From: Lysobacterales bacterium
GTDB lineage: Bacteria; Pseudomonadota; Gammaproteobacteria; Xanthomonadales; SZUA-5
DNA: 18,830 nt
Direction: 5' to 3'
NCBI GenBank assembly: GCA_022844165.1
Contig: JALHMH010000045.1
Location: 1 to 18,830, forward strand
Shown here one piece after another: positions 1-18,830 of this stretch; positions within the stretch are counted from its first letter, which is position 1; the number at the start of each line of letters is the position of its first letter. Under the pieces are notes generated by a model. The model saw only the letters and a program-made list of their open reading frames with translations. It did not search any database and was not told the DNA's origin. The position numbers and the translations under genes are program-made.

Positions 1-327
1 TATCGAAAGTGGCTTCAGTTTTGGCCGCGGATTGAACGACTCGACAGGATCGGTCGCAACCGATTCGGAACTCCGCGAGCCGCCCACCGGATTGGCGACA
101 AAATGCGCGACGCTGAGCTTGTCTGCGCGGACTTCGAGAATCTCCTGATGTTCGCGACCGTCCTCCAGCACGCCATTCACCTGATAAACGCCGGGGTCGA
201 GCTCGATCGACTGATTGCTACCGACCGTGGCCACCCAGCGCATCCGCGCATCGCGCACATCGAACTGCCACTGGTTGCCGAGGAGTTGCGACGGAAGTTC
301 CACATCAACACGCAGTTGTCCTTTCAT
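1..327 (-). CDS. Hypothetical protein, 5' part only (runs off window); N-terminal beta-rich (PEGA/Ig-like?) domain
   Basis: Not in ORF track because it has no stop in the window. ATG at 327-325 overlaps the caspase TGA (ATGA), AAGGT RBS-like motif about 6 nt upstream, open for 109 codons to the edge: MKGQLRVDVELPSQLLGNQWQFDVRDARMRWVATVGSNQSIELDPGVYQVNGVLEDGREHQEILEVRADKLSVAHFVANPVGGSRSSESVATDPVESFNPRPKLKPLSI. Confidence 0.8.
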   Translation of the reverse strand, partial: MKGQLRVDVELPSQLLGNQWQFDVRDARMRWVATVGSNQSIELDPGVYQVNGVLEDGREHQEILEVRADKLSVAHFVANPVGGSRSSESVATDPVESFNPRPKLKPLSI

Positions 328-1478
328 GGTTGCACCTTCGCGGCGATTCGCGTTGCCGGTGGGTCGACTGGAACATATTTGTTGAATGAGCGGTAAGGGC
401 TCGCGGTGGTGATCCTGATCGCACACACGCCGGCTTCGACCTCAGCCCTGGCTGGCCACTCGGAGGAGGTTGCGACGATCTGCATGTTCGCGTCCTCGAC
501 GCTCAACGTCGAGGACGGCGCTGCTTCGATGGGGTCGATTGAAACCGTCAGGGTCACGCTGGGCGGCCTGTCGTACACATGAAACACGGCCGGGCGCGGC
601 ATTCCGGCGGGTTCCACCCATTGTTCGACACCGGCTGAGGTAGCCAATTCGCTAACGCGGTTCGGCAACACCGTCAGCAGCTTTGCCACCGGCACGTGCC
701 AGGCGTCGACATGGCGGCTATCCGGCCCCTCGGCCGCCGCGCCCGTCGCCATGGAATCGAGCAGCGCATCGGCAAAGAACGTGCGTCCGCCGGGACGTCC
801 ATAGGCGCTGGTGCCGGTGATTGCGCTTAGCAGCAGCAGCGAAGAATCGCAGTGACCTGTGTTGACGATGTCGAGCGTGAGTGCGCCGCTCAGCAGGTTG
901 TCGAACTGTCGCGCGATCTCTGGTGGTTGCCGGCATGCATCGACAAACCAGAATTGATGCTTTGGCGCATCCGCGTTGTTGAACGCCCGGTGCACGCCGA
1001 CCAGATCGATGCTGCCATGCATACGCCGCGCAACCTTGGCGGTGCCGAAGTCTTCGAGCAGGAGAACGGCGCCGGCCATATTCAATTGCACGCCATGGCC
1101 GGCGACATACACCACCGCGTGGTTGTCGCGATGCCGATGGCAGATCGCCCAAAATTGCTCCAGTCCGTTCTCGACGTTGGCCCGGGTGGCTGGGAGATTG
1201 TCCAGAGCGCGGTAACGATCCGCGATCTGCTCGTCGGGCCCGGGCGACAGGAACAGGCGCAGGCTGCGCAAAGGCGGCAGTCCGATGGTCTTGCGGGTCT
1301 CCAGCCATTGCGCGACGTCGCTCGCCGATCGGGCCGCCGATCGCAATTGTTTCATGCCCGTCGATTCGCCCACTTCGGTCGGCTCGCTGCCGTCGGCAAA
1401 GTGCCGATACGCACTCACACCGATCACCAGCACATGCGTGCCGGGTGCGCTGTCATCATCGTCAATCACGATCGCCAT
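324..1478 (-). CDS. Caspase-like peptidase (C14 family, metacaspase-type) with C-terminal ~77-aa beta-rich domain, ~384 aa
   Basis: Motifs HVLVIGVSAY, ATRANV, VVYVAGHG (catalytic His), FWFVDACR (catalytic Cys), SAITGTSAY, GRTFFADALL. True start probably ATG 1478 (GGAG 8 nt upstream) or ATG 1484 (TGATG overlap with upstream stop); the extension to 2105 in the ORF track is a shadow of the upstream gene. Confidence 0.9.
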   Translation of the reverse strand: MAIVIDDDDSAPGTHVLVIGVSAYRHFADGSEPTEVGESTGMKQLRSAARSASDVAQWLETRKTIGLPPLRSLRLFLSPGPDEQIADRYRALDNLPATRANVENGLEQFWAICHRHRDNHAVVYVAGHGVQLNMAGAVLLLEDFGTAKVARRMHGSIDLVGVHRAFNNADAPKHQFWFVDACRQPPEIARQFDNLLSGALTLDIVNTGHCDSSLLLLSAITGTSAYGRPGGRTFFADALLDSMATGAAAEGPDSRHVDAWHVPVAKLLTVLPNRVSELATSAGVEQWVEPAGMPRPAVFHVYDRPPSVTLTVSIDPIEAAPSSTLSVEDANMQIVATSSEWPARAEVEAGVCAIRITTASPYRSFNKYVPVDPPATRIAAKVQP

Positions 1479-1483
1479 GGGCA

Positions 1484-2620
1484 TCACTCCACAAACATCG
1501 GGTCGTGCAGTTCTGCGAGCGGGCGATAGCCGCCGCGCATGCGGGCTTGCACGCTTTCGTGTACCAGCGGACGGACATCGGAATGCGGTCGGCGTGGGTT
1601 CCCACGATTGACGTGCCATTCGCGGCGCCAGATTTCTTCCGCTTCGCCGTCGTCGCCGCTGCGCAGTTCGCGGCGCATTCGCGGAATGGGCAAATGCTCG
1701 ATCACCCGCCACCAGGGTCTCAAGCGCAACTCGTCGTGGAGTGGGGCGGTTGCGTGCGCCTCCGCCAGCGTCTTGAGGAGTGTGGAATCGTCGCTGACCT
1801 GAAGGTCGCCAGTTTGGCTGGCGCTGACCTCCGGCTTGAAAGTGAGTCCGGCGGCCTGCGCTTCGCGTTGCATCCAGGCGAGGGTGATCAACGACAATCC
1901 AGCCTCGGCATCGCGATAGCCGCCGCCGATATCGGAGTGATTGCCGGCGAACCAGACCTGGCGCACATCGGTGGTTGTATTGGGTTCCTTGTGTGTCCAG
2001 CGATTCTGGACGAACATCACCCGCCGTTCGTCCAGCGCCAGTGCCTGGCGCACGCAACGCACGCGCGGATTGTCGAAAGTGTAGGAAAACCTTTGTGGCA
2101 TCCATGGCAGGCCGACGGCGCTCACCGAATCGAACAGCCCGATGAAACGGATGTCCTTGATGAAGCGACCATAGTGCCGCCGAAAGCGCGCGCCGGCGTC
2201 GTCGCCACGCTGCCAGGGCGCGAGATAAGCCTTCCAGGCGAATGGCACCATTTCGTCAAAACCGCGATGCAATAAGCCAACCCGGGTGAGCATGCCGGCC
2301 AGCACGCGCGCGGCAAAAGCGCCTCGCGAGAAACCAAAAAGGTACAGTTCATCGCCGTCCTGCCAGTTCGACATCAGATAGCGATAGGCGGCGCAAACAT
2401 GCCGCTCAATAAAGATCGCCGACATCGAGTCGATCGTCATCAGCGCGCGTTTGGCAAACGTGCTCAGCACCGACCCTGGCTCCAGTGTGCCTACGCCGGG
2501 TTGGTAATACGTGAGCTGTTCGTGATCGCGCTTGAGCATCCGGAACAGACGCTGGATGTTGGTATAGCCGCCGTCCGGATAGTTATTCGTTCCATCGAGA
2601 CATAAGACGTGCCGGGTCAT
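1484..2620 (-). CDS. DUF2235 / Tle1-like alpha/beta hydrolase (putative phospholipase), ~378 aa
   Basis: Motifs VLCLDGTNN, TNIxRL, YYQPGVGT, LYLFGFSRGAFAAR (GxSxG nucleophile), FIGLFDSV, QALALDERR, QVWFAGNHSDIGGGY (HxDxGGG). Start ATG 2620 with GAGGAG 6 nt upstream. Confidence 0.92.
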   Translation of the reverse strand: MTRHVLCLDGTNNYPDGGYTNIQRLFRMLKRDHEQLTYYQPGVGTLEPGSVLSTFAKRALMTIDSMSAIFIERHVCAAYRYLMSNWQDGDELYLFGFSRGAFAARVLAGMLTRVGLLHRGFDEMVPFAWKAYLAPWQRGDDAGARFRRHYGRFIKDIRFIGLFDSVSAVGLPWMPQRFSYTFDNPRVRCVRQALALDERRVMFVQNRWTHKEPNTTTDVRQVWFAGNHSDIGGGYRDAEAGLSLITLAWMQREAQAAGLTFKPEVSASQTGDLQVSDDSTLLKTLAEAHATAPLHDELRLRPWWRVIEHLPIPRMRRELRSGDDGEAEEIWRREWHVNRGNPRRPHSDVRPLVHESVQARMRGGYRPLAELHDPMFVE

Positions 2621-2876
2621 ACCAAACTCCTCGCAGCGGATAGGATGGTCTAGCGGATGCAGTTTAACCAATTGTTGCGAGACGCAGGCGAGGGCGCTGG
2701 AGCAGTTCGAATAACCGAAGCGAGCGGCCTGGAGGCAAGGCGGATCCCACTTCCACAGGAGCACACCATGAAAATCCGCAACAACGTTTTGCCTGGCACA
2801 GCCGCCCCGGGGACTTGCAGCCTGACGGCGGATACCTGATCTTGGTGGGATATGCTGTACTCAACGGAGACCGCCG

Positions 2877-3668
2877 ATGATCATCGAGCGCATCTGGGTG
2901 GGCAATACGCTTCGGAATTTCAACTATCTGCTGGCCTGCCCGGATAGCGGTGAAGCGCTTGCCATTGATCCGCTGGATCACCGGCAGGTTCTCGCCGTAG
3001 CGCGGGATCGTGGTTGGCACATCACCCAGATCCTCAATACTCACGAACACCACGATCATATCGGCGGCAATGCTGCTGTGGCCGCAGCAACGGGTGCCAG
3101 GGTCATAGCGCATGAGCTGGCCAGCAGCCGGATTCCGGACGTCGATCGCGGCGTTGGCGCTGGCGATGTCATCCAGGTGGGCAGGACGGTCGAACTGGAA
3201 TGTCTGGACACGCCCGGACATACGTTGAGCCATATCTGCCTGCTGGCCCATACCGGGCAACCGGCATTGTTTTCCGGCGATACCCTGTTCAATGCCGGTG
3301 CCGGCAATGTCCGAAACGGCGGCAATGTCCACGCGCTGTACCGCACTTTCGTCGATCAGTTGATGCGACTGCCGGCCAACACTCGGGTGTTTCCCGGACA
3401 CGATTACATCGAAAACAACTTGGCCTTTACGCTCTCACGCGAACCCGACAATCGCGATGCTGCAGCGCTGCTGGAGCGCGTCCGCGGCCACGATCCGGCT
3501 GGGGCACCGGTGGCGACACTGGCCCAGGAGATGCGGCACAACAGCTTCTTCCGTCTGGACCAAGCCAGGATCATCGCCGGATTGAGGCTGAATTTCCCGG
3601 ATCTGCCTGAGCAGCCGGATGCCGAAACCGTGTTCATCAAGCTGCGCGAGCTGCGCGATCTCTGGTGA
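2877..3668 (+). CDS. gloB: Hydroxyacylglutathione hydrolase (glyoxalase II, metallo-beta-lactamase fold)
   Basis: THEHHDHIGG, TPGHT, FSGDTLF, PGHDY, ATLAQEMRHNSF, C-terminal FxxLRxxRD; GGAG RBS upstream. Confidence 0.9.
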   Translation: MIIERIWVGNTLRNFNYLLACPDSGEALAIDPLDHRQVLAVARDRGWHITQILNTHEHHDHIGGNAAVAAATGARVIAHELASSRIPDVDRGVGAGDVIQVGRTVELECLDTPGHTLSHICLLAHTGQPALFSGDTLFNAGAGNVRNGGNVHALYRTFVDQLMRLPANTRVFPGHDYIENNLAFTLSREPDNRDAAALLERVRGHDPAGAPVATLAQEMRHNSFFRLDQARIIAGLRLNFPDLPEQPDAETVFIKLRELRDLW

Positions 3669-3844
3669 GAATCCCATTCGCCTGTCGCGTACCTCAGCCG
3701 TGCGCAGACGACTCGCGTCCGCGATACGGACGAGACCGCACCCGGATCTGCGCCAGAATGGCCACCTTGAAGCCACTTGGCAATTTTCCGCGCACCACAC
3801 TCCAAAGCAAGCTCGCAAGTGCTCATGCTTCGTTGCGCGCTACA

Positions 3845-4315
3845 TTAGCGCCGTTTGTCCGGCGGTGGCGTTGGCGGCGGCGCCTTGGGCAAACCGCCCT
3901 GGATCTGCCGCCATAGTTCCATGTTGCGCTCGGTTAAGTCGGTCATCATCGCCCACGGCGACTGTCCGAGCAGCGTGTTCAGCTGGCTGCGAAACTGCTG
4001 TTGCTGATCCAAAAACACTTGCATGCTGCGTTCGAGATAGCTGCCCATGAATCCCTGCAGCGAATCGCCGTAAAAGCGTATTAATTGCGACAGCAGTTGG
4101 GTGGTCAACAGCGGCTGCCCCTGCTCTTCACGCTCGGCGATGATTTGCAGCAACACCGAGCGCGTCAGGTCCTGGCCCGACTTGGCGTCATGGACCTCGA
4201 AGCTCTCGCCGTCTTGCACCAGTTGGCGGATGTCCTCGAGGGTCACGTATGAGGAAATTTCGGTGTCGTACAGACGCCGATTCGGATACTTTTTGATGAC
4301 GCGCAAGCCGGCCAC
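3845..4315 (-). CDS. phaR: Polyhydroxyalkanoate synthesis repressor PhaR
   Basis: IKKYPNRRLYDTEISSYVTLE and DLTRSVLLQII, LxQLIRFYG signature; start GTG 4315 (or GTG 4321 overlapping the phaB stop). Confidence 0.93.
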   Translation of the reverse strand: MAGLRVIKKYPNRRLYDTEISSYVTLEDIRQLVQDGESFEVHDAKSGQDLTRSVLLQIIAEREEQGQPLLTTQLLSQLIRFYGDSLQGFMGSYLERSMQVFLDQQQQFRSQLNTLLGQSPWAMMTDLTERNMELWRQIQGGLPKAPPPTPPPDKRR

Positions 4316-4317
4316 GT

Positions 4318-5058
4318 TCACCAGCCCATGTAGTGGCCGCCGTTGATCGACAGATTGGCACCTGTGATCCACGCAGCCTCTTCATTGACGAAAAAGTTCA
4401 CCGCATACGCGATTTCGTCCGGCGAGCCCAGACGTCCGGTCGGGATTTGCGCAACGATCTTTGCGCGCACATCTTCGGGCACCGCCATGACCATATCGGT
4501 GCCGACGTAACCGGGCGATACCGTGTTGACCGTAATGCCGAATTTGGCGTTCTCTTGCGCCAGCGAAATCGTGAACCCGTGCATGCCGGCTTTCGACGCG
4601 GCGTAATTCGCCTGGCCGTATTGCCCTTTCTGACCATTGATCGATGAGATCTGCACGATGCGACCCCACATGCGTGCCCGCATCCCCTCGATCACGTTGC
4701 GCGTCACGTTGTAGCACGACGTCAGATTGGTCGCGATCACGTCCGACCACTGTTGCTCGCTCATGCGATGAAAGGTGCCGTCGCGGGTGATGCCTGCATT
4801 GTTGATCAAGATATCGATGCCGCCGAGTTGCGCTTCGATGGCCTGGACCATGGCCTTGCTCGACGCAAAGTCGGCCACATCTCCCGGCACAATCAAACAA
4901 TCCACGCCATCTTTCTTCAGCTCTTCCTGCCAGGCGCGGGCCTTCTCTTCGCTGCGGTAGTTGGTGGCTACGCGGTGTCCGGCGCGCGCGAGGCGTTTGA
5001 TCATGGCCGTACCGATGCCGCCGGTTCCGCCGGTAACGAGTGCAACGCGTGAAGTCAT
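4318..5058 (-). CDS. phaB: Acetoacetyl-CoA reductase (SDR family)
   Basis: TGGTGGIG, NNAGITRD, ISSINGQKGQYGQANYAASK, ends SINGGHYM; GGAGG RBS; adjacent to phaR. Confidence 0.95.
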   Translation of the reverse strand: MTSRVALVTGGTGGIGTAMIKRLARAGHRVATNYRSEEKARAWQEELKKDGVDCLIVPGDVADFASSKAMVQAIEAQLGGIDILINNAGITRDGTFHRMSEQQWSDVIATNLTSCYNVTRNVIEGMRARMWGRIVQISSINGQKGQYGQANYAASKAGMHGFTISLAQENAKFGITVNTVSPGYVGTDMVMAVPEDVRAKIVAQIPTGRLGSPDEIAYAVNFFVNEEAAWITGANLSINGGHYMGW

Positions 5059-5127
5059 GACTTGATTACTCCTCCCAAAGGTGCTGGGGATTCTACACAG
5101 CGCGTCGACATTTTCCGCAGCGCACCA

Positions 5128-5544
5128 TCATGGGATCGTTTGCAGCAACAGCGAGCCGCTGAGACGGTCATGCGCACATTGTTTGTCGCGGTCGATCAGC
5201 GCCCACATCAAGCCAACGACGGATGCCATTGACAGCAGTGCCAGGAACGCGCGCAGGGTTGCGCGTGCGACGCTCAGGCGCGACCCATCCAGCGCCCGAA
5301 CCTCCAGCCGCCAGGCGCGCGCGCCGAGCGTCTGTGCGCCGCGCCACCAGGACAGAGCGAAATACGCCCACACGATGAGGATCAGATACGCCTGAAACCA
5401 AAGCGCCCCAGCGGGCACCGCCTTGCCGCCGGTCACTGGCAACACGGCGAAGCCCGCGATCATCAGCACACCCAGCAGAATCAGCGTGTCATAGACGATC
5501 GCACCCAGGCGCTTTAGAAAAGTCGCGGGTTCCAGGATGCGCAT
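5128..5544 (-). CDS. RDD family membrane protein
   Basis: KRLGAIVYD, hydrophobic helices, GAQTLGxxAWRLxV, R..., HDRLS motif. Confidence 0.9.
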   Translation of the reverse strand: MRILEPATFLKRLGAIVYDTLILLGVLMIAGFAVLPVTGGKAVPAGALWFQAYLILIVWAYFALSWWRGAQTLGARAWRLEVRALDGSRLSVARATLRAFLALLSMASVVGLMWALIDRDKQCAHDRLSGSLLLQTIP

Positions 5545-5643
5545 TCGTAGGACTCAGGAAAAGGGCCAAAGACAATAGCGCTGCGCTGTTCGTTTTTCGC
5601 CCCCTGCACCATTCACTCCAGCATCCGCCACTGGAGTCGACTC

Positions 5644-8073
5644 ATGTTGCGTCTTGCCGCCACCTTTGCGACATTGCTTGCGGTACCCGCGCATGCGCAG
5701 GTCGTCACATCCTGCGTCGATACCGTCGAGGAATTCGACGCTGCCTATCAGCAGGCGCAGGAGGAAGACGTTGAAATCCGCGTTGTTCGCGGAACTTACG
5801 ATATGAGCGACTCCTGCATCGGCGCGCTGGACAACGAATTCCGCTGCCAGGACATCGCCGAGGCCATCACGATCAAAGGTGGCTATGCGCCGGGTTGCGG
5901 CTCGCGCGTTTTGGACGCGACACAAACCGTTTTCCTCGGGCCGGGCATCGGCGTCGGTGGCCTCGGTTTTCGCATGGTCACGCGCGATCCCATCGTGCTC
6001 GATACGCTGACCATCACCGAAAGCGACCGCGGCTTCGAGTTCGAAGTCGAGAGCGACTTTACGCCAGACGCCCGCCTGACGTTTCGCCGCGTGTGGTTCC
6101 ATCGCATCGGGCCCGTCACGATGGAACGTGGTGCGGAATGGGTGATCAGCAATTCGATGTTCACTCGAACACGAGGCAGTTCCAGCGGCTGCGCTCTGGA
6201 GGCTGGCATCACGCAGAACAGCCTGCTGGAACTGGTCTCGCTAACCCACGTGACGATTGCCGACAGCGTCGGCAGTGGACTGTGCGTGGGTCAATCCTTC
6301 GACAGCGGTCCTGGCGACATCCGCATGCGACTCTACAACTCGATCTTCTGGAACAACGCCGGCACCGATGTGCGCCTGCGCCAGGTCGGCACCATCGATG
6401 CGATTATTGATCGCAATACCTACGGCAGCATTTCGGTGGTGCCGGACCTGCCGCAATCACCGAGCGGTACGTTGACCAGCGATCCACAGTTCGTCACGCC
6501 ACTGGTGAACTACGAACTGGGCGGTTCGTCCGCCTCGATCAACAGTGCAGGAATCTTGGCCAATACGGCGAGCGACGTCGACCTTAAGGGCGACGCGCGA
6601 CAGTTTTCGAGCCGCCCAGACCGCGGCGCGCTGGAGTCATCTGTCGGTAGTACCGCCAGCACGATCACCGTCACTTCGGCCGCCGATAGCGGCGTGGGCA
6701 CCTTGCGACAAGCACTGCTGGATGCCAATCAGACGCCAGATTTGACGCGCGTACACTTCAACATTCCGGGCGCCTGCCCGCGCGTGATCAACCTGCAGAC
6801 ATTGCTTCCAGAGCTCAGCACGAATGTGCGCATTGATGGCTACACGCAACCGGGCGCCAGCCGCAACACGTTGTTTGCTGCCAATAACGCCAATATCTGC
6901 ATTGTGTTGCACAATGCCAATTCAGCACTGGCCGGCATCATCGTACCAGCCAGCATTCCCGCCGACCGCAGCGTCGTGATCGACGGTGTGGGCTTCTCCA
7001 ACTTCGCGTTCGGTGGAGTCAATTTTAACGGCGGAGCAAATCATGCGCTGTTCGGTTCGCAGGTCGGCGGCAGCATCAATGGCTATGACGCCACCGCCAG
7101 CGGGTATGGTGTGCGCATTGCGGCGGCAACACGCGACATTCTGATCGGCGGCGATGCACCAGGTGAGCGCAACACCTTCGCCGATGCCGCGATTGTTGGC
7201 GTCCAGGCGCTCGGCCGAGAGGCAATCATCGAGAACAACTACATCGGCACCAATCGGCTGGGCTCGTCGGTGGTGCCAAACAACATTGGCGTCGAGTTGC
7301 GCAATGGCGGGGCCAACATCGTGCGCGGCAACCTGATTTCTGGCAACCTCGAAGCCGGCATCGAGATCGACAACGCTGAATTCAACACGATCACCGGCAA
7401 TGTGATCGGCACGAGCTCCGTATGCGCGTTCGGCGACTGCGACCTGGGCAACGGCACGCATGGCGTTTTCGTTTTTGGCAGCGGCGCCAGAAACAACGCG
7501 ATCAACAACAATCGCATCGTTTTCAACAACGGGGATGGCATTTACATCCGCGATGGCGCCAGCGGCAATGTGATCGTCGCCAATCGCATGAGCGACAACA
7601 CTGGGCTCGGTATCGATCTTGGCGCCAACGGCTTGAACCCTAACGACAGCGATTACGCCACTGCGCCAGCGATCGCCGGCAATCAGAACCAGAACACTCC
7701 ACAATTGACTCTTGCGTATGGCGGCGCCGGCACGGGCTTCGTCAGCGGTTCCCTGCAGACGCGAAACGGCACCTACCGTATCAACTTCTATGCCGATGAC
7801 GAATGTCCGTTACCGATTTTCAACGACACCGGCCAAGGCGAGTATCCGCTGAGTCAGACCATCGTCAACGTGGTCGGCGGCGACCCTGGCACCGGCGTCA
7901 ATGGCATCGGTACATTCACGGACGTTCCCATCAGTCGCAGCGGCGATACGGACTTCTTCGACGTCCCACGCCGCATCCTGGCCACCGCGACCCGTCTTGC
8001 AAGCAACGATACGTCTGAGCTGAGCCGCTGCGTGAACTACGATCGGCGACTATTTGCCAACGGGTTTGAGTAA
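5644..8073 (+). CDS. Large secreted right-handed parallel beta-helix protein with choice-of-anchor-Q-like segment, CSLREA-like motif and C-terminal LFANGFE motif
   Basis: Sec signal peptide ending AHA/Q; SxxINSAG...DLKGDAR...PDRGALE; ITVTSAADSGVGTLRQALLDAN; N/G/I-rich repeats (NIVRGNLISGN, NTITGNVIG, NVIVANRM); LGIDLGxNG..PND; ends DRRLFANGFE. GGAG RBS. Confidence 0.82.
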   Translation: MLRLAATFATLLAVPAHAQVVTSCVDTVEEFDAAYQQAQEEDVEIRVVRGTYDMSDSCIGALDNEFRCQDIAEAITIKGGYAPGCGSRVLDATQTVFLGPGIGVGGLGFRMVTRDPIVLDTLTITESDRGFEFEVESDFTPDARLTFRRVWFHRIGPVTMERGAEWVISNSMFTRTRGSSSGCALEAGITQNSLLELVSLTHVTIADSVGSGLCVGQSFDSGPGDIRMRLYNSIFWNNAGTDVRLRQVGTIDAIIDRNTYGSISVVPDLPQSPSGTLTSDPQFVTPLVNYELGGSSASINSAGILANTASDVDLKGDARQFSSRPDRGALESSVGSTASTITVTSAADSGVGTLRQALLDANQTPDLTRVHFNIPGACPRVINLQTLLPELSTNVRIDGYTQPGASRNTLFAANNANICIVLHNANSALAGIIVPASIPADRSVVIDGVGFSNFAFGGVNFNGGANHALFGSQVGGSINGYDATASGYGVRIAAATRDILIGGDAPGERNTFADAAIVGVQALGREAIIENNYIGTNRLGSSVVPNNIGVELRNGGANIVRGNLISGNLEAGIEIDNAEFNTITGNVIGTSSVCAFGDCDLGNGTHGVFVFGSGARNNAINNNRIVFNNGDGIYIRDGASGNVIVANRMSDNTGLGIDLGANGLNPNDSDYATAPAIAGNQNQNTPQLTLAYGGAGTGFVSGSLQTRNGTYRINFYADDECPLPIFNDTGQGEYPLSQTIVNVVGGDPGTGVNGIGTFTDVPISRSGDTDFFDVPRRILATATRLASNDTSELSRCVNYDRRLFANGFE

Positions 8074-8346
8074 GTGTTGCGTGCGACGTACCAGGCCGAA
8101 TTTGTTTAACTGCGAGGCTTTGCGCCGGCCCCACGAACAATATTGGCTTCGACGCCGCAGCTGACAGATCTCCATTGAGCTGCGCGTATCCTGCCCGGCG
8201 GCGCAGTCGACGGGGTTCGGTTCGGCACACGCCTCGTGGCGCCTAAACGCCGAACCTCAGTCCTCTTCTGACAAGCCGACATGCAGCTGGCAGGCTGTTC
8301 CCCGATTGCGATATCTTCAAGGCATCATCGTGGAAACCTCATTTGG

Positions 8347-8532
8347 ACGGGGCAGCGTGCGCGCTCATGGGGGTGCAGGGGTGAAAGCTGGCAAGCTTGC
8401 GCGGCAGCCGGGTGTCAGCTTGAACGGCTGGCGACTGCGCCGCCAGACCGGAACGGCGCAATGAGAACGAATAGCCATTCCAACGAGTTGTAACGCTGCG
8501 ATGCGCCGCCAGAAGGGTGCCACCTGCCCCGT
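8347..8532. repeat. MITE-like / structured intergenic element bounded by imperfect 31-bp inverted repeats
   Basis: 8347-8377 ACGGGGCAGCGTGCGCGCTCATGGGGGTGCA versus reverse complement of 8502-8532 ACGGGGCAGGTGGCACCCTTCTGGCGGCGCA (22/31 identical, first 9 perfect); several internal hairpins. Confidence 0.5.
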
Positions 8533-8633
8533 AGCGCACTCACCCGATGGGTGTATCGCCCAAACTGCTGAAAAGGCAATAGATACATGAACCTATGGGC
8601 CTGGAGAAGCGGTCAACCGAGGTTTTCAGGATC

Positions 8634-9557
8634 ATGACGCGCAAACCGCCGCCGCCTCGCCAGGACAATCCCGAAGATGCCGCACAGCGCATTGCGCGTT
8701 TTTGCGACTCACTGTGGGCCGAACGTGGTTTGGCCAAGGCATCGCTCGCCAGCTATGCAAGCGATCTGAATCTGCTCGCCGTTTTTCTGCGTACCCGGCA
8801 ACGCACATTGGACGATGTCAGCCGCCAGGAATTGTTCGACTATCTGGCCACTCGAATGAACGAGGGGCTGAAGCCGCGCTCGGCGGCGCGCCTACTGTCG
8901 GTGATGAAGCAATACTTCAACTGGGCTCGTGAGCAGGGCTTCCGCGACGATATCCCGAGCGCGGAACTGAGTTCACCGAAACTGCCGCGCGCCTTGCCGA
9001 AAGCACTGAGCGAATCGGAGGTTGTTTGCCTGCTCCGGGCGCCCGAGGTCTCTACGCCGCTTGGTTTGCGCGACAAAGCGATGCTCGAGTTGCTGTATGC
9101 ATCGGGACTTCGTGTATCGGAACTGGTGGCGCTGCGCAGCGAGCAAGTGAGTTTGGCGCAGGGCGTGTTGCGAATCCGCGGCAAAGGAAACAAGGATCGC
9201 CTGGTGCCGATGGGGGACGAGGCGCAGGCCTGGATCGAACGTTATTTGAGCGAAGGTCGCCCGTTGCTGCACGACAAACCCCAACCAGCCCTTTTCATCA
9301 CAACGCGCGGCAGCGCCATGACGCGCCAGGCTTTTTGGGCGTTGATCAAACGCTACGCAATCGTTGCCGGTGTGCGCGATTTATCGCCGCACGTGTTGCG
9401 GCATAGTTTTGCCACGCATCTTCTGAACCATGGTGCCGACTTGCGCGTCGTGCAGCTGTTGTTGGGACATAGCGATCTGTCGACAACGCAGATTTACACG
9501 CATGTGGCGCGCGAAGGACTCAAGCGCCTGCACCAGCAGCACCATCCTCGCGGATGA
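8634..9557 (+). CDS. xerD: Site-specific tyrosine recombinase XerD
   Basis: LWAERGLA..SYxSDL, RDKAMLELLYASGLRVSELV, GKGNKDRLVP, SPHVLRHSFATHLLNHGADLRVVQLLLGHSDLSTTQIYTHV, C-terminal HHPRG typical of XerD. Start 8634 or 8595. Confidence 0.95.
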   Translation: MTRKPPPPRQDNPEDAAQRIARFCDSLWAERGLAKASLASYASDLNLLAVFLRTRQRTLDDVSRQELFDYLATRMNEGLKPRSAARLLSVMKQYFNWAREQGFRDDIPSAELSSPKLPRALPKALSESEVVCLLRAPEVSTPLGLRDKAMLELLYASGLRVSELVALRSEQVSLAQGVLRIRGKGNKDRLVPMGDEAQAWIERYLSEGRPLLHDKPQPALFITTRGSAMTRQAFWALIKRYAIVAGVRDLSPHVLRHSFATHLLNHGADLRVVQLLLGHSDLSTTQIYTHVAREGLKRLHQQHHPRG

Positions 9558-11935
9558 ACATTCTCAGCGACGAAACTCAGGACACGCCGCGCGGCAACGA
9601 AGCGCCGCAACTGGAAGTGCTGGGGCCATTCAAGCTGATTGAATTGCTGGGGCGCGGCGGGATGGGCGCGGTGTACCTGGCCGAGCAGGATCACCCGCGG
9701 CGACGCGTCGCGTTGAAGCTGATGCGCAGCGAGCTTGTGGGCAGCGACGACCTGAGACGCTTTACGCGCGAGGCGGGCTTCCTGGCCAAACTGGCGCACC
9801 CAGCCATTGCGCGTGTGCTCGAAGCCGGCCATGTTCGCGGCGCACTGGGACCGATACCCTATCTTGCGATGGAGTATGTGCAAGGCACCGGCCTGATTCG
9901 GCACGCCGCCGCTCTGTCGCCCGTGGCGCGCATTCGGCTGCTGGCAGACATCTGCCGTGCCGTACAACATGCGCATGCCCGTGGCGTGATTCATCGGGAT
10001 CTGAAGCCCGACAACATTCTGGTCGACAGCAACGGTTTGCCGAAGATCCTCGATTTTGGGATCGCCAAAGCTGTGGAGGCCGAGGACGACGACCCGACGG
10101 CACCGCACACGATGGCGGGGCATGTCATTGGAACGCCGAACTACATGAGTCCCGAACAACTGGCGGGTGCCGCGATCGATCCGCGTACCGATGTATACAG
10201 CCTGGGCGCGATCGCCTATGAGGTCCTCAGTGGTGCACGCGTACGCGAGTTCGCGGGCCAATCGCTGGCAGAGGCACAAGCTGCGTTGCATCTGGCGCCG
10301 ACACGGCTGGCGAACCGCGCACCCGCTACGCGAGGCGATATCGATACGATCGTGATGAAGGCACTGGCCGCCGAGCCGGAGCGACGTTATCAAAGTGCCG
10401 CGGAGCTCGCCGACGACTTCGAACGGTACTTGACGCGACGCCCAATTCTCGCGCGTCCGCCCTCCTTCGCTTACAGCGCAGGGCGTTACCTGGTTCGCAA
10501 TTGGCTGGCGCTCAGTGTTGCCGGCATCGTGGTGGCAAGCCTGCTCGGCGCGACGTTGGTTTCGCTCGGATTTGCAAAAAGGGCCGAACGCGCGCGCGCA
10601 GAGGCCGAAACACAGGCGGCAGTTGCGCGCGAAGTCAATGGGTTCTTGCGCTCGATGCTCAGCGCCGCCAACCCGCGTGCGAGCGCGGACCGGCCGACAA
10701 CCTTGCTGGACATGGTCGACAGAGCCAGAGACGCATTGGCGCAGCGCAACGTGAGCGCTGCGGTCGAACTGGAAATTCGCCGCACGCTGCTGGATACCTA
10801 CCGCGGCCTCAGTCAGTCCGAACAGGCCCTGGCTCAAGCCGAGGTGATCCTGGCTCACGCCCAGAGTATCGAGGCGCAGATTGAGGCGCAGTTGCATCGA
10901 GCGGCGCTGCTTGGAGAATTGCAGCGGCAAACCGAGGTCGCCGCAACACTGACGACGGTGGAATCGCTGATCGCACAATTAGCGACTGTGCCACCGGAAA
11001 GCGCACGTAAACTGGCGCTGGAGCGCGCCCGATGGCACACTCGCGACGGACGCTTCAACGAGGCGCTCACTGCCTTCGACGAAGCACTTGCAATGGCGTC
11101 AGGCGAGCTACGTCGCGACGACCCCGAACAGTTCCCGATTCGCGCCGATCGCCTCAACGTGCTCGCTGACTTGGGTCAAATCAACGCTGCGATGACTGAG
11201 TTCGATGCACTGATCGCTGACGTCGAACGCGTCCAGGGCGCCGATCATCCGGAGACACTGATCCTGCGCAACGATCGTGCGACGCTGTTTCACGGCACTG
11301 GCGCCACCGCCAGAGCGGCAGCGGAAATGGAAACGATCGCTGCCGATGCCGCCCGCGTATTCGGTCCCGATCACGAATTTACGTTGACAACGTTGCACAA
11401 CCTGGCGGCTGTCGAAATTGGACGTGGAAAACGACAACGGGCGCTGGAGTTGCTCAGCGAAAAACGCCGCCGGATGCAAGGCAGGTACGCCCCCGATCAC
11501 CTGAAACTGATCAATACCGAGTCGTCGCTCGCGGTTGTGGCCGCGCAACTCGGGGATGCCGACGGCGCGGAAGCCATCTATGTGGATGTGCTCAAGCGCT
11601 GGCCCGAAACCAAGAGCGGTTTCCCCGCGGAAATCGCAACCGCTCTGTTCAACCTCGCGCGTCTGCGCGCCGACCAAAAGCGTTGGCCACAAGCCCGCGC
11701 CGATTTTGAAACCCTCATCCGACGTATGGAGCAGGCAAAGCTCAGCGACTCCGTGTCGCTGGCACGATACCGCGTCGAGTTTGCCAGTCTGCTCCTGATC
11801 CACGAAAACGATGTGAGCGCCGCTCGTCGTCAACTGGACTTCGCCCACGCCAAAATCGAGCGAGAGCTGCCCGTCGATCATCCATCGCACAAGCTTGCGG
11901 ACCAGGTTGCGGCTCGCCTGGGCGAGTCGTTCTGA
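9554..11935 (+). CDS. Hanks-type Ser/Thr protein kinase with transmembrane helix and C-terminal TPR-like region
   Basis: LGRGGMGAVY, VALK, HRDLKPDN, ILDFG, GTPNYMSPEQ, DVYSLG, PERRYQSA; TM WLALSVAGIVVASLLGATLVSL; repeats of the GxDHPxTLxxxNxLA type. ATGA overlap with xerD. Confidence 0.93.
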   Translation: MNILSDETQDTPRGNEAPQLEVLGPFKLIELLGRGGMGAVYLAEQDHPRRRVALKLMRSELVGSDDLRRFTREAGFLAKLAHPAIARVLEAGHVRGALGPIPYLAMEYVQGTGLIRHAAALSPVARIRLLADICRAVQHAHARGVIHRDLKPDNILVDSNGLPKILDFGIAKAVEAEDDDPTAPHTMAGHVIGTPNYMSPEQLAGAAIDPRTDVYSLGAIAYEVLSGARVREFAGQSLAEAQAALHLAPTRLANRAPATRGDIDTIVMKALAAEPERRYQSAAELADDFERYLTRRPILARPPSFAYSAGRYLVRNWLALSVAGIVVASLLGATLVSLGFAKRAERARAEAETQAAVAREVNGFLRSMLSAANPRASADRPTTLLDMVDRARDALAQRNVSAAVELEIRRTLLDTYRGLSQSEQALAQAEVILAHAQSIEAQIEAQLHRAALLGELQRQTEVAATLTTVESLIAQLATVPPESARKLALERARWHTRDGRFNEALTAFDEALAMASGELRRDDPEQFPIRADRLNVLADLGQINAAMTEFDALIADVERVQGADHPETLILRNDRATLFHGTGATARAAAEMETIAADAARVFGPDHEFTLTTLHNLAAVEIGRGKRQRALELLSEKRRRMQGRYAPDHLKLINTESSLAVVAAQLGDADGAEAIYVDVLKRWPETKSGFPAEIATALFNLARLRADQKRWPQARADFETLIRRMEQAKLSDSVSLARYRVEFASLLLIHENDVSAARRQLDFAHAKIERELPVDHPSHKLADQVAARLGESF

Positions 11936-11968
11936 TGGCGTCACGCGAAGCGCGCTTTGGCCCGAACA

Positions 11969-12454
11969 TCATTTTCCTAACGCCAGTTCGATCGCATTGA
12001 TCAACTCTGGGGCTTCGGGCTTCACTGTCGGCGCAAAGCGGCGCACCACGTTCCCATCACGGCCGATCAGGAATTTTTCGAAATTCCAGCTGATGTCTCC
12101 CGGAAAACTGGCGTTCGTCCCCGCGAGCCATTCGTACAAAGGATGACGATCTGCGCCATTGACATCGATTTTCCCGGACATCGGGAACGTCACGTCATAG
12201 TTGATTGTACAGAACTGCTGAATCTCAGCCTCAGTGCCGGGCTCTTGACCGGCGAATTGATTGCACGGTACACCGAGCACCTGGAATCCGCGGTCGTTGA
12301 ACTGGCGGTGCAGCGCTTCCAGCCCCCGGTACTGTGGTGTCAGACCGCAGCGACTGGCCACATTGACCACCAGCACCACTTCTCCCTCGAAACGGTCCAA
12401 TGGCAAATCCCAACGGTCGATGCCGGGAAGCTTGAAGTCTCTGATGTGCGCCAT
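11969..12454 (-). CDS. Glutathione peroxidase (Cys-type, BtuE/Gpo family)
   Basis: VVNVASRCGLTPQY, GVPCNQFAGQEPG, WNFEKFLI; start at ATG 12454 (MAHIRDF). Confidence 0.93.
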   Translation of the reverse strand: MAHIRDFKLPGIDRWDLPLDRFEGEVVLVVNVASRCGLTPQYRGLEALHRQFNDRGFQVLGVPCNQFAGQEPGTEAEIQQFCTINYDVTFPMSGKIDVNGADRHPLYEWLAGTNASFPGDISWNFEKFLIGRDGNVVRRFAPTVKPEAPELINAIELALGK

Positions 12455-12518
12455 GTTTCGTTCGAGTCGCGATTGAGGGCGCGAATCATGCGCCTCGTTT
12501 CGCGGGCTTGCCAATGTC

Positions 12519-13468
12519 TCAAGCGACATCGAATCGCAGCGGCGCGACGGCCGCCAATTCCTCGCTGCCTGCCAGGAACTGATGCAAACGATCGACACCC
12601 ATCGCAACCCCGCAGCAACTGGGCAGCATCGGCAAAGACGCGAGCAAACGCTCATCCAGCAAGGGCAGCGCCCTGGCGCGCGTCAGGCGCACGCTCAGAT
12701 CGTGTTCGAAGCGCCGACGTTGTTCCGCGCAATCACGCAGCTCATCGTACCCATTGGCGATCTCCAGCGAACCTAGAAAAAGCTCGAATCGCTGTGCTAC
12801 ATGGACGCCGCCGACGCGTTCAACCCTGGCCAATGCCGCCTGCGCGGGCGGGAAATGGTAGACAAAACGTGCCGTGTCGTTCGCGAATGTTGGCTCGATC
12901 TGATGCGTACGAATCACGTCAAGGGCGTCGTCGCGCGACAGCCCCTCCGGATCGATACCACAGGCGCGCGCCCGAGCGAAAACCTCTTGGTCGCTGGCGA
13001 GCCAGGGATCCAGGCCGGATGCCACGAATAACGTCCGGTAGTGAATCCGCTGCACAGCGCCAAGCGTACGACCGAACGCCTGAGCAACGCGGCGAACCAG
13101 TGCTTCGACCTCGTCCATCAGCTGATCCAGCCCGATTCCGACGCGATACCACTCGAGCATCGTAAACTCTGGATTGTGCCGACGCCCATACTCGCCATTG
13201 CGGAAAACCGGACCAATCTCGAAACAATCTCCAATCCCGGCCGCCAGAAGTCGCTTCAACGCAAACTCGGGCGAGGTTCGCAACCAGCGTTGCCCGGCCC
13301 CTCCGCTCGCCGGTCCGACATAGCTGGTCTCAAAGCTCTCGATATTCGGATCCGTATTGCCTGCTGAAGATAGGATTGGCGTAACGACTTCGACGGCACC
13401 TGTGTCCGCAAAATGCGCTCGTAGCGCAGCCAACAGGCGCGCTCGCTCGGCGTAAGCCGCCAGCCGCA

Positions 13469-13469
<1 letters not shown>
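12519..13469 (-). CDS. epmA: EF-P lysine aminoacylase EpmA/GenX
   Basis: LRTSPEFALKRLLAAG, FRNGE.GRRHNPEFTMLEWYR, RFELF, EIANGYDEL, GVAMGVDRL; lacks a LysRS anticodon domain; start overlaps ligA stop. Confidence 0.95.
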
Positions 13470-15559
<2,090 letters not shown>

Positions 15560-16264
15560 TCACCAATTGGGTTTGATTTGTAGAGCTTCGCGTTTGCGAT
15601 CGTAAGCACGCAGTTCATCGCGCAACGACGCGATACGTTGACGACCCAGCGGTGTACGCTGATCGTCGAGCACCTGGGCTTGCAGCAGACCGCCCAGCCG
15701 ATTCGCGGCCGCCTGCATCATGTCCCATGCCTCAAGGGCAGAAACCGGCCCTGGCAAAGTCATGAAAATTACCACGCCCGGTGTGCTGATCTGATCCATC
15801 GAGGCCAGATCAAAATGCCCCGGACGCACCATGTTGGCCATGCTGAATACCGGCCCCAACTCGGGTTTGGTATCGACCAGCCGGTGATAAATGTTCAAGT
15901 GGCCGTGAACCATGCCGGCTTTCTCTGCCGCCACCATCAAATCGCTGCCATGAATCTCGAATCCCTCCGCAGCCACTACGTACAACGTGACGATCCGTTC
16001 ATGGCTCTGTTCGTCGCGCTGCCCCGGTTGCGGCGAACTCTCATCGTCAACTTCCCGCTGGTCAGACTCTGGAGTCGCCGCAAAATCGCCGTCATCCAAA
16101 GCGGTGAACGATGGCTCGTCCGGACTATCCAATACAGGTTCGCGCCGCGCCGAAGAGGCGCGCGGCTTCGGCGCATCCGGTCGCTTACGCCCGAACCAGT
16201 AGATGGCCGCCAAAATCAGCAGGCCCAGGAGAATCAACACAACGCGAAGTTCGGTGGCAGTCAT
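15560..16264 (-). CDS. zipA: Cell division protein ZipA
   Basis: N-terminal anchor ELRVVLILLGLLILAAIYWFG, acidic/Pro linker, C-terminal IYHR..FSMANMVRPGHFD..TPGVVIFMTLP domain; directly upstream of ligA. Start ATG 16264. Confidence 0.92.
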   Translation of the reverse strand: MTATELRVVLILLGLLILAAIYWFGRKRPDAPKPRASSARREPVLDSPDEPSFTALDDGDFAATPESDQREVDDESSPQPGQRDEQSHERIVTLYVVAAEGFEIHGSDLMVAAEKAGMVHGHLNIYHRLVDTKPELGPVFSMANMVRPGHFDLASMDQISTPGVVIFMTLPGPVSALEAWDMMQAAANRLGGLLQAQVLDDQRTPLGRQRIASLRDELRAYDRKREALQIKPNW

Positions 16265-16461
16265 CGACAAGGTCCCATGCTCAAAGCAAAGCATACGCGG
16301 GCGCCAGCGTATCTGTTAAACCTCAAGTGCAAGCGAGTTTGTCTTGTTCTTCGCGAAAGTCGCCATTTTCGGTACGCAAGAGGGTCCGGTATCGTTATCA
16401 TGAGTCACTCGGCGCCGACCTTGGGCATACTCGACGCCGCCAACCAAGGGGTTGTTCCAGC

Positions 16462-17439
16462 GTGTCATTTCTCGATCGACTCAAGCGCGAAGCGGATCAG
16501 CAAAAGGCTCAGGCCGATGTCGTCTCGCAAGAACGAGACGTGCGCAGCGCGCTCTACAAAACCGAGATCGAACCGCGCATGCTCACGATGGCTACCTTCC
16601 TTGAAGGGTTGGCGGCCACGTTGATTCAGGTTCGCCCGTCGATTGTCGTGAAGATGCCAATCCAGGGTTATGGCGATCTGGGCGCGCAACCGTTTTGGGA
16701 TTATCGCGTCGATCACGAACGCCGCCACCGCGGTTTTTTGATCACGATGCGCTGGACCTTGCGCGTCGATCCGGAACGCACCCCGATCGTACGCGCGGAA
16801 GGCGCCACCAAAGTCAGGACCTTGACCTCGGTGTTCCGCAACTGTCAGCTGGCAGGCATCAAAGAAGAGAAACGCGCGCCCAACGGCGAAATCTCGATCG
16901 CGACGTTTCATGCTCGCGGCATGATCAAAGCGGAAATGCAGGCCACCATCACCGCCGAAGATCCGGTGCTTCGCCTCGTGTTCAACAACGCCAGTTGGCT
17001 TGGTTCTTCTCGACGGCAGGTTCCCTGGCAGCAAATCGATGAGGCTCTGTTCGATCGTGTCGCCCGCTTCATTGCGCGCGAAGACGATTCGCTGTTCACC
17101 GAAGAACTCCCGGCGGCTTTGCGCGCGAGTCTGCGCGGCGAGACTGACGCCGTCGATACGCCAAAGAACACCTCCTGGATGGATCGCAATCATCCGGAGC
17201 CAACGCCTGCTGCGCCACCACCGCCTTCCGCGCCGAAGCCAGCGGCTCAGAAGGACTCGGAGTTCGCTCCGATAGCCTCAGACATTGCGTACGTGCCGAG
17301 CATGATCGCCGCACCGCCACCACCAGATGCCGGCGAAATGATCCCGATCGATCAAACCAAGCTCGAAGCTGCCTCTTTCATGATGCGTATGAACGTGACG
17401 CTTTCGAAGCTGCGGGACGACGAACCCGACAAGTCCTGA
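16462..17439 (+). CDS. Hypothetical protein, ~325 aa, charged helical N-terminus and Pro/Ala-rich C-terminal tail
   Basis: Probable GTG start 16462 (MSFLDRLKREADQQ) with AAGGGG upstream; the ORF-track extension to 16111 overlaps zipA antisense. Protein-like composition; ends 5 nt before the HDAC gene. Confidence 0.75.
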   Translation: MSFLDRLKREADQQKAQADVVSQERDVRSALYKTEIEPRMLTMATFLEGLAATLIQVRPSIVVKMPIQGYGDLGAQPFWDYRVDHERRHRGFLITMRWTLRVDPERTPIVRAEGATKVRTLTSVFRNCQLAGIKEEKRAPNGEISIATFHARGMIKAEMQATITAEDPVLRLVFNNASWLGSSRRQVPWQQIDEALFDRVARFIAREDDSLFTEELPAALRASLRGETDAVDTPKNTSWMDRNHPEPTPAAPPPPSAPKPAAQKDSEFAPIASDIAYVPSMIAAPPPPDAGEMIPIDQTKLEAASFMMRMNVTLSKLRDDEPDKS

Positions 17440-17444
17440 ACGCG

Positions 17445-18272
17445 ATGTTCGACGTCTTTTATGCCGATGCGATGCTCGCGCCGGCTCAGGCGATCAGCCC
17501 AAGCGCGCATAAACCCAAACTGGTCGTGGAATCCTGGCAGCAACTCGCGCCACATCTGCAAATCGCCACGCCTGAGCCGGTGACGCGCGAACAACTCGCA
17601 CGAGCACACGACGAGCGCTATGTCGAAGAGATTTTTGCCGGCGTCGCGCGCAACGGATTTGGCAATTGCGATGCAGCGGTCGCTGCATCCTTGCCGCATA
17701 CCTGCGGTGCCATGTTGAGCGCAGCGCGCGCGGCGTGGAAAACGGGCAGTGTTGCGATTGCGCCTTGTTCGGGCTTTCACCATGCGAAGTTCGCACAAGC
17801 GGGCGGCTTCTGTACTTTCAATGGCCTGATGGTCGCCGCCCTTGCGCTGTTGGGTGAAGGCGCAGCGCGGATCGGTATCCTGGATGCCGACATGCACTAC
17901 GGCGATGGCACCGACGACATCCTGGCTGAACTCGGCGAACTACGCGTTGAGCACGTCACGCTCGGTGCCGACTACCGGCGGCCGAAACATGCGGCGACGT
18001 TCTTCGCCGCGCTGCCACTCATCATGCGCCGTTTCGAGAGCTGCGATGTGTTGCTCTATCAAGCCGGCGCGGATCCCCATATCGATGATCCGCTCGGCGG
18101 CTGGCTGACGACTGACGAGCTGCTAAGGCGCGATCTGGAAGTCTTCGGCGCATGCCGGACGATGCACCTGCCGATTGCCTGGAATCTGGCCGGTGGCTAT
18201 CAATCGCCGCTGCGCAAGGTACTGGATATCCACGACAACACGCTACGCGCGACGATGCAGGTTTTCGGCTGA
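17445..18272 (+). CDS. Histone deacetylase family (Zn-dependent deacylase) protein
   Basis: AHDERYV, GFHHA, GGFCTFN, ILDADMHYGDG, YQAGADPHIDDPLG, LAGGY. Confidence 0.93.
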   Translation: MFDVFYADAMLAPAQAISPSAHKPKLVVESWQQLAPHLQIATPEPVTREQLARAHDERYVEEIFAGVARNGFGNCDAAVAASLPHTCGAMLSAARAAWKTGSVAIAPCSGFHHAKFAQAGGFCTFNGLMVAALALLGEGAARIGILDADMHYGDGTDDILAELGELRVEHVTLGADYRRPKHAATFFAALPLIMRRFESCDVLLYQAGADPHIDDPLGGWLTTDELLRRDLEVFGACRTMHLPIAWNLAGGYQSPLRKVLDIHDNTLRATMQVFG

Positions 18273-18302
18273 TCTGCGCTTCCGATCCACTTTTTGAGCG
18301 AT

Positions 18303-18830
18303 CGGCATCGCCGCTGGGCGTTGTGCTCGGCACACGCCTGCGGCGTGCTCTGGCCAGTTCGCCCGGCCCAGCGGCATCGCCGCTGGGCGTTGTGCTCGGC
18401 ACGCGCCTGCGGCGTGCTCTGGCCAGTTCGCCCGGCCCAGCGGCATCGCCGCTGGGCGTTGTGCTCGGCACACGCCTGCGGCGTGCTCTGGCCAGTTCGC
18501 CCGGCCCAGCGGCATCGCCGCTGGGCGTTGTGCTCGGCACACGCCTGCGGCGTGCTCTGGCCAGTTCGCCCGGCCCAGCGGCATAGCCGCTGGGCGTTGT
18601 GCTCGGCACACGCCTGCGGCGTGCTCTGGCCAGTTCGCCCGGCCCAGCGGCATAGCCGCTGGGCGTTCGGCTCGGCACACGCCTGCGGCGTGCTCTGGCC
18701 AGTTCGCCCGGCCCAGCGGCATAGCCGCTGGGCGTTGTGCTCGGCACACGCCTGCGGCGTGCTCTGGCCAGTTCGCCCGGCCCAGCGGCATAGCCGCTGG
18801 GCGTTCGGCTCGGCACACGCCTGCGGCGTG
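18303..18830. repeat. 69-bp tandem repeat array, palindrome-rich (REP/BIME-like), 7 full units plus 45 bp, truncated by window end
   Basis: Unit CGGCAT[C/A]GCCGCTGGGCGTT[GT/CG]GCTCGGCAC[A/G]CGCCTGCGGCGTGCTCTGGCCAGTTCGCCCGGCCCAG starting at 18303, 18372, 18441, 18510, 18579, 18648, 18717, 18786. Confidence 0.97.

Follow-up and report, generated by a model that had tools for sequence, protein, structure and literature searches.

The canu loci are the closest described relatives of the locus studied here, and they were described only in 2025 (Tuck et al., Science 2025, PMC12799240). According to the main text of that report, canA encodes a MALT1-like caspase that retains a C-terminal immunoglobulin (Ig)-like fold, canB encodes a protein of unknown function that co-purifies with CanA and for which Ig-like and tetratricopeptide repeat (TPR) elements are mentioned, and canC encodes a metallo-beta-lactamase (MBL)-fold pro-nuclease that is blocked by two insertions with conserved glycines. 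The same text reports that KaeCanABC from Klebsiella aerogenes protected E. coli against phage T4, with escape mutants mapping to dda, and that CanAB turned CanC into a nuclease in vitro; the diversity of Canu was explicitly left open there. An independent report linked a clade of protease-associated MBL proteins to caspase-like proteases (Evans et al., bioRxiv 2025, PMC12642450). It also describes a pair from Lysobacter capsici AZ78 in which LcCaspase activates LcHydrolase, an alpha/beta-hydrolase zymogen, by double cleavage. Here we analyzed a stretch of 18,830 nucleotides from a Lysobacterales bacterium (GenBank assembly GCA_022844165.1, contig JALHMH010000045.1, positions 1 to 18,830; hereafter the window), at the left end of which lie a lipase-like hydrolase gene (gene A), a caspase-family gene (gene B) and the beginning of a third gene (gene C). 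An earlier note, made from the sequence alone, had proposed that these three genes form a protease-gated defence or cell-death system. We propose, with a probability of roughly 60%, that the promoter-proximal genes of a Canu-type caspase-nuclease anti-phage operon lie in the window and that the gene A product, a DUF2235 protein, serves this operon as an exchangeable second death effector.

The three genes of the cassette all lie on the minus strand and are joined by two stop/start overlaps, both read directly from the sequence. This agrees with the arrangement given in the earlier note, which did not state the strand; gene C is incomplete. The features of the cassette are as follows.

2620..1484, minus strand: gene A, DUF2235/Tle1-like, lipase-like alpha/beta-hydrolase, candidate accessory effector (Pfam PF09994, invariant catalytic residues).
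1486-1482, minus strand: TGATG, the stop of the lipase gene overlapping the start of the caspase gene (sequence).
1484..324, minus strand: gene B, CanA-like caspase-family protease (PF00656, PADLOC, AlphaFold2 model, Foldseek).
327-324, minus strand: ATGA, the start of the canB-like gene overlapping the stop of the caspase gene (sequence).
327..1, minus strand: gene C, CanB-like, 5' part only, continuing past base 1 (tblastn, alignment with relatives).
2621..2876, no strand: intergenic region of 256 bp between the lipase gene and a divergent gloB-like gene, presumed promoter of the operon (position only).

The product of gene B has 386 aa, and an ATG 6 nt downstream gives a 384-aa form that is the database protein P0001. 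It matched Peptidase_C14 in Pfam (PF00656, E 2.3e-6, 27.9 bits against a cut-off of 21.4) and the PADLOC model 'caspase' (E 1.7e-10), and its family (192 matches) consists of proteins about 384 aa long and conserved from end to end. The GHG and DACR motifs were both present, and His130 and Cys184 were invariant in 28 sequences. An AlphaFold2 model (mean confidence, pLDDT, 90.5) showed a caspase fold at residues 1-285 followed by an Ig-like beta-sandwich at 288-383. When this model was compared with solved structures using Foldseek, the top PDB matches were caspase-Ig3 chains of MALT1 (E 2.3e-6 to 1e-5). The template modelling (TM) scores across both domains were just 0.31-0.45, and those of caspase-only chains were higher (TMt 0.62-0.66). 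Assignment of gene B to the NCBIfam family 'caspase_w_EACC1' was rejected (26.7 bits against a cut-off of 140).

Only the first 109 codons of gene C are visible. They encode an N-terminal transthyretin/Ig-like beta-sandwich and run into a disordered linker. This fragment matched no Pfam family, and CanB gave no match to a PADLOC or NCBIfam model. The fragment aligned with 17 full-length relatives. The model of the full-length relative from locus L001 comprises a pair of transthyretin/Ig-like sandwiches, a disordered linker and a helical domain of TPR-like type. Among look-alike clusters in the Atlas, PF27295 (Y4kD_C) was found. A profile of gene C found 1771 cluster representatives, two of which are natural caspase-CanB fusions; in these (P0476, 682 aa; P0495, 656 aa) a Peptidase_C14 caspase domain is fused to a CanB-like region. 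The fusions fit a physical partnership of CanA and CanB. A further representative, P0494, is a fusion of WD40 and CanB-like parts (661 aa). Judged by its position and domain types, which match those of CanB, gene C would encode the partner of the caspase and not an effector. The earlier note had considered the third protein a possible effector; in the published system the established effector is the MBL pro-nuclease CanC.

To place the cassette among its relatives, a profile built from 28 family members of the caspase was searched against contigs representing one genome per species, which gave 27 loci. These loci span seven phyla (Pseudomonadota, Chloroflexota, Actinomycetota, Myxococcota, Planctomycetota, Gemmatimonadota and Acidobacteriota). 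Results showed that the caspase gene was followed directly by a gene C homologue in 26 of the 27 loci (tblastn); in the remaining one, the contig breaks off within the caspase gene. The overlap of the canB start with the caspase stop was found again in L001, at 4663. An MBL-fold gene (gene D) was present in 25 of the 27 loci, following gene C in 24 and lying upstream on the other strand in L022, and both loci without it are contigs that end early. A DUF2235 gene preceded the caspase gene only in L001 (72% identical to gene A) and L012 (31%). L001 is the nearest fully visible relative of the window (62% CanA identity), and it carries all four genes. Because genes C and D are near-universal and DUF2235 occurs only in L001 and L012, the conserved set is B-C-D, not the three genes of the window. 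The earlier note had treated the window's three genes as the unit and had asked for their co-occurrence in other genomes; the pairing of caspase and third gene was borne out (26/27 loci), and that with DUF2235 was not (2/27).

The D proteins carry the marks of the Canu nuclease. All six that were tested matched Pfam Lactamase_B above the cut-off, and all five tested against PADLOC matched MBL models over their full length, namely LmuA (E 1e-57 to 1e-68), Avs1a and RTasMBL. Their nearest solved sequences were MBL domains of ComEC/competence proteins. Alignment of 19 D proteins revealed an HxDxDH metal site and two variable insertions, each of which has an invariant glycine (Gly105 and Gly190 in L001) as part of a [LIV]-E-x-hydrophobic-G motif; 15 of the 19 proteins had the motif at both places and the other 4 had it once. 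Moreover, pairwise distances of CanA tracked those of CanC (Mantel r 0.81, 19 loci, P 2e-4) and those of CanB (Mantel r 0.80, 17 loci, P 2e-4). These results indicate that the core of CanA, CanB and CanC co-evolves. The combination had not been recognized in the earlier note as a named system; the triad of caspase, unknown protein and MBL nuclease matches Canu (CanABC) as described in the main text of PMC12799240, and on this likeness to the published description of KaeCanABC we file gene B as CanA-like and gene C as CanB-like.

Several loci departed from the plain triad. L005 carries a second MBL-fold gene between canC and a patatin gene (13649-16591; 477 aa, Lactamase_B E 2.5e-13), perhaps an effector module that was duplicated or added. 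Other genes or fusions stood at the canA end. In L019 there is an EAD1 plus trypsin-like protein (7874-9931), and L006 has TPR repeats in one open reading frame (ORF) with the caspase (9179-11146). In L022, an AAA_16 ATPase follows canB (9342-11198). In L010 (2553-6548), a 947-aa upstream stretch is in frame with the caspase and gave a weak match to Abhydrolase_1. On plasmids, tblastn with the caspase gave distant matches only (25-32% identity, 11 records). Eight records were inspected; H3, H5 and H8 were left out because they repeat H2, H4 and H7 in species and statistics. Of the eight, six were triads, and L033 and L035 differed in architecture. In these two rhizobial plasmid loci (L033 4222-10375; L035 4062-10771), an M12 metallopeptidase gene is followed by the caspase gene and then by a gene for a very large protein, the N-terminus of which matches the CanB profile. 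The large protein is annotated as phospholipase D-like in L033 and as trypsin-like in L035, and neither locus has an MBL gene.

Several of the related loci had surroundings that look like defence islands. Their neighbours included DruE, JetC/D-like genes, a gene for an E2-E1-JAB protein, TIR and RES toxin genes, and insertion sequence and integrase genes. The triad stood directly beside DruE in L016 (Druantia, PADLOC E 0; 14652-20171), beside JetD/JetC-like genes in L017 (13652-18245) and beside the gene for an E2-E1-JAB fusion protein in L009 (13826-16132). The CanA tree cuts across taxonomy. Together, the defence-gene and mobile-element neighbours and the tree fit a horizontally mobile defence module. 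With caspase and third gene occurring together in 26 of 27 loci, several of them beside defence genes, the idea of a protease-gated defence or cell-death system has held up.

Gene A encodes a product of 378 aa that begins with MTRHVLCLDG, and a GGAG lies 8 nt before its ATG. The product matched T6SS_Tle1-like_cat in Pfam over residues 3-253 (PF09994, E 3.2e-76), and no PADLOC or NCBIfam model matched it. The motifs GFSRG and HSDIGGG were present, and Ser98 (in GFSRG), Asp164 and His228 were invariant across 31 relatives. The catalytic motifs of both enzymes, which the earlier note had read as intact, are thus intact. Besides the catalytic core, gene A has a C-terminal domain, about 125 aa long, that is also conserved. 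Conserved R-G pairs occur at R99-G100, inside the GFSRG nucleophile elbow, and at R119-G120.

The name of the Pfam family raises the alternative that gene A encodes a Tle1-type antibacterial phospholipase effector of a type VI secretion system (T6SS), with the downstream genes as accessory or immunity genes. A profile of the gene A family does reach solved Tle1 chains (E 2e-16). However, only core segments align, and the protein has 378 aa against 560-884 aa for the solved T6SS Tle1 chains. No T6SS component was found by Pfam among the 19 window ORFs scanned, in line with the earlier note, and no vgrG, PAAR, hcp or other T6SS gene was present in the window or among the annotated neighbours of L001, L012 and L029. 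By eye, neither the gene A nor the gene B product has a signal peptide. The genes downstream of the lipase are homologues of CanA and CanB instead of immunity lipoproteins. We therefore regard a T6SS effector as very improbable.

Lipase genes recurred beside the core. In hidden Markov model scans of all ORFs in the 27 loci, confirmed with Pfam, DUF2235 was found in 2 loci and a patatin-like phospholipase in 10, so that 13 of 28 loci carry a lipase when the window is counted. In all four DUF2235 loci (the window, L001, L012 and the plasmid locus L029), the gene lies directly upstream of the caspase gene on the same strand; in L029, on a Bradyrhizobium plasmid, the distance is 8 nt. Among the other plasmid triads, a Sinorhizobium locus (L028) has a divergent patatin gene 65 bp upstream, a Streptomyces triad has a divergent alpha/beta-fold hydrolase gene upstream, and three have no lipase. 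Ten of the 12 lipase genes of the genome loci lie within 125 bp of the triad. Gaps of 0-8 nt or overlaps were found at the lipase junctions of L012, L029, L007, L004 and L019. Mapped onto the CanA tree, the lipase genes require two or more gains for DUF2235 and five or more changes for patatin. Two unrelated lipase families have been recruited repeatedly to the same slot; this argues for a functional link between lipase and core and is the main support for the lipase belonging to the system. In addition, patatin genes downstream of canC in L004 (13455-14480) and L019 (13387-14391) are 64% identical, with CanA at 40% and hosts in different phyla, which suggests that a lipase cassette moves between Canu lineages. 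We found no description of a lipase-bearing Canu locus in the literature, the main texts of PMC12799240 and PMC12642450 included, although the supplements of these two papers may show such loci.

Several observations weigh against a simple model in which the caspase cleaves the lipase. The core does not need a lipase, because 15 of the 27 loci have none. Patatin distances did not follow those of CanA (r 0.32, P 0.06, 10 loci), and without two outliers the correlation was r -0.26 (8 loci). The cut-site motif of CanC, which occurs in both of its gating loops, was lacking in the 13 lipases, 2 of which gave loose matches at unrelated positions; a search of the CanA and CanB sets for the same motif likewise found nothing conserved. 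In the patatin alignment, no shared insertion or docking tail was seen by eye. No Canu-specific zymogen feature or gating insertion was visible in gene A, the C-terminal domain of which is family-wide, and gene A comes from the very large DUF2235 family (4923 matches of 8000 scored).

Some of these observations bear on the alternative that the lipase is an independent neighbour, that is, a stand-alone defence or housekeeping hydrolase merely co-localised with Canu in defence islands. The absence of a lipase from 15 of 27 loci and the lack of co-evolution with the core would be expected of such a neighbour, as would the position of the patatin genes 2-3 kb away in L005 and L013 and on the opposite strand in L013 and L028. 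The DUF2235 family also occurs mostly outside Canu, with its 4923 matches against 192 for CanA. However, the lipase stop overlaps the caspase start in the window, the junctions of the five loci given above are also tight, and 10 of 12 lipase genes lie close to the core. Two or three unrelated hydrolase families have been recruited independently to the same slot across phyla. For these reasons we judge an independent neighbour unlikely. The observed pattern is that of a variable accessory to a conserved core.

The whereabouts of canC form a further point against the Canu reading. The gene is not in the window, and its expected place is left of base 1. Among the best 120 of 789 matches to the L001 CanC, an indirect cluster check could assign none to the window's own contig and none to the contig of the window's closest relatives. 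The same check did link CanC to CanA in two other lineages, P0004/P0243 and P0005/P0130/P0246, and the latter also holds a DUF2235 and thus all four genes. The nuclease may be absent from the window's lineage, the contig may end there, or the indirect check may have failed.

If the nuclease were absent, the lipase could, on a strict reading of the mechanism proposed in the earlier note, be a zymogen cleaved by the caspase and the main or only effector in this lineage, which would make a three-gene system of lipase, caspase and CanB without a nuclease. The translational coupling of the lipase and caspase genes, the upstream same-strand position of DUF2235 in all four of its loci and the missing CanC link among those 120 matches speak for it, as does the caspase-activated alpha/beta-hydrolase described in PMC12642450. 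But L001 carries all four genes, as does the lineage P0005/P0130/P0246 by the indirect check, and CanC was present in 11 of the 11 lipase-bearing loci that extend far enough. The lipases also have no CanC-type cut motif and show no co-evolution with CanA. A nuclease-free system of this kind seems improbable to us.

We thus favour a Canu-type operon with the lipase as a second, exchangeable effector. In such an operon the lipase gene would come first, translationally coupled to canA, and would be followed by the start of canB, with canC expected just left of the window. By analogy with KaeCanABC, a complex of CanA and CanB would respond to phage infection, CanA would cut the two gating loops of the MBL-fold pro-nuclease CanC, and the freed CanC would degrade DNA, whereby the infection would be aborted. 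The DUF2235 protein would act on membranes or lipids and would fill the slot held by the patatin-like phospholipase in other Canu loci. The lipase is probably wired functionally to the core. That this wiring consists of proteolytic licensing of the lipase by CanA is a more doubtful proposition; the lipase might instead be released from a complex, or act independently once the core has fired. We can only tentatively suggest that the pathway branches at the Canu caspase, which would license two different death effectors, namely an MBL DNase and a phospholipase. The lipase slot would then be filled interchangeably by DUF2235, patatin or other alpha/beta-hydrolases, and in the lineage of the window a lipase might even stand in place of the nuclease.

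The core has already been described as Canu, and the accessory lipase may be new. Wiring of the lipases to the caspase would make Canu a multi-effector system, with one protease in control of a nuclease and a membrane-damaging enzyme, and DUF2235, so far known as a T6SS effector domain, would gain a role in intracellular suicide defence. With a true branch point, bacteria would have their own counterpart of a caspase that triggers the destruction of both DNA and membranes. If the lipases are not wired, the locus would be an ordinary member of a known defence family next to a hydrolase.

Beyond the cassette, the window is occupied by housekeeping genes. The cassette abuts a gloB-like gene at 2877-3668 (+), as the earlier note had seen; its product matched Lactamase_B and HAGH_C above the Pfam cut-offs, and TIGR03413 at 179 bits, under the cut-off of 200.8. 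The remainder includes phaR, phaB, xerD, epmA, ligA and zipA, and the cassette is embedded among these genes without a marked shift in GC content. A sigma-70 consensus scan of positions 1-3000 found no promoter-like site, and the five terminator-like sites in the same region all lie inside genes. No tRNA genes or Rfam matches were found in the window, and neither the window nor the scanned neighbours of the related loci contained a gasdermin, CRISPR-Cas or CalpT/Csx30-type partner. Two further genes of the window were of note. The xerD gene (8595-9557, +; TIGR02225, 365 bits) shares an ATGA overlap at 9554-9557 with a gene (9554-11935, +) for a Ser/Thr protein kinase of 793 aa that carries TPR repeats at its C-terminus. 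Its kinase domain matched the PADLOC PD-T4-6 models (E 7e-77), which may reflect a generic kinase fold. The gene at 5644-8073 (+) encodes an 809-aa protein in which right-handed beta-helix/NosD repeats at about 486-658 are the only recognizable parts.

Compared with known systems, the locus is nearest to Canu. As far as the main text of PMC12799240 describes them, the two share the gene order of caspase, gene of unknown function and MBL nuclease, which was seen in the relatives of the window, and the CanA fold of a MALT1-like caspase with a C-terminal Ig-like domain, which was seen in the model of the window caspase. Also shared are a middle protein with Ig-like and TPR-like parts (L001 model), two nuclease gating insertions with conserved glycines (D proteins of the relatives only), and a setting in defence islands or beside transposases. 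The difference is the extra DUF2235 gene coupled to canA here; that main text mentions neither a lipase nor a patatin.

The LcCaspase/LcHydrolase module of PMC12642450, compared by its description there, shares with the window an alpha/beta-hydrolase gene beside a caspase-like cysteine protease, and in both cases proteolysis is proposed to unleash a death effector. LcHydrolase, however, is a smaller protein of about 33 kDa (the sum of three reported fragments) that is cut at two R|G sites, whereas the window protein is a 378-aa DUF2235. On comparison of the two hydrolases by description, no equivalent of these sites was recognizable in the latter. The module as described is also without CanB and CanC.

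The MBL pro-nuclease/trypsin-like pairs of AVAST type 1 (Avs1a), Hachiman (HamM) and Lamassu/DRT share with the D proteins the same PADLOC MBL models and the design of a double-gated zymogen. In AVAST, Hachiman and Lamassu, the protease is a trypsin-like domain fused to a sensor, whereas here it is a stand-alone caspase, and core genes of STAND, Hachiman or Lamassu type are absent. With the T6SS Tle1 effectors, gene A shares the DUF2235 catalytic domain family and the Ser-Asp-His triad; it differs in having no T6SS context and no immunity gene, in being about half the size, and in being presumably cytoplasmic.

Patatin-like phospholipases are suicide effectors of abortive-infection systems such as CBASS (cyclic oligonucleotide-based antiphage signalling system), where the effector is CapV. 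Although nucleotide-signalling genes are absent here, the Canu-type operon proposed above would share with CBASS CapV the idea of an exchangeable phospholipase suicide effector placed on a sensing core.

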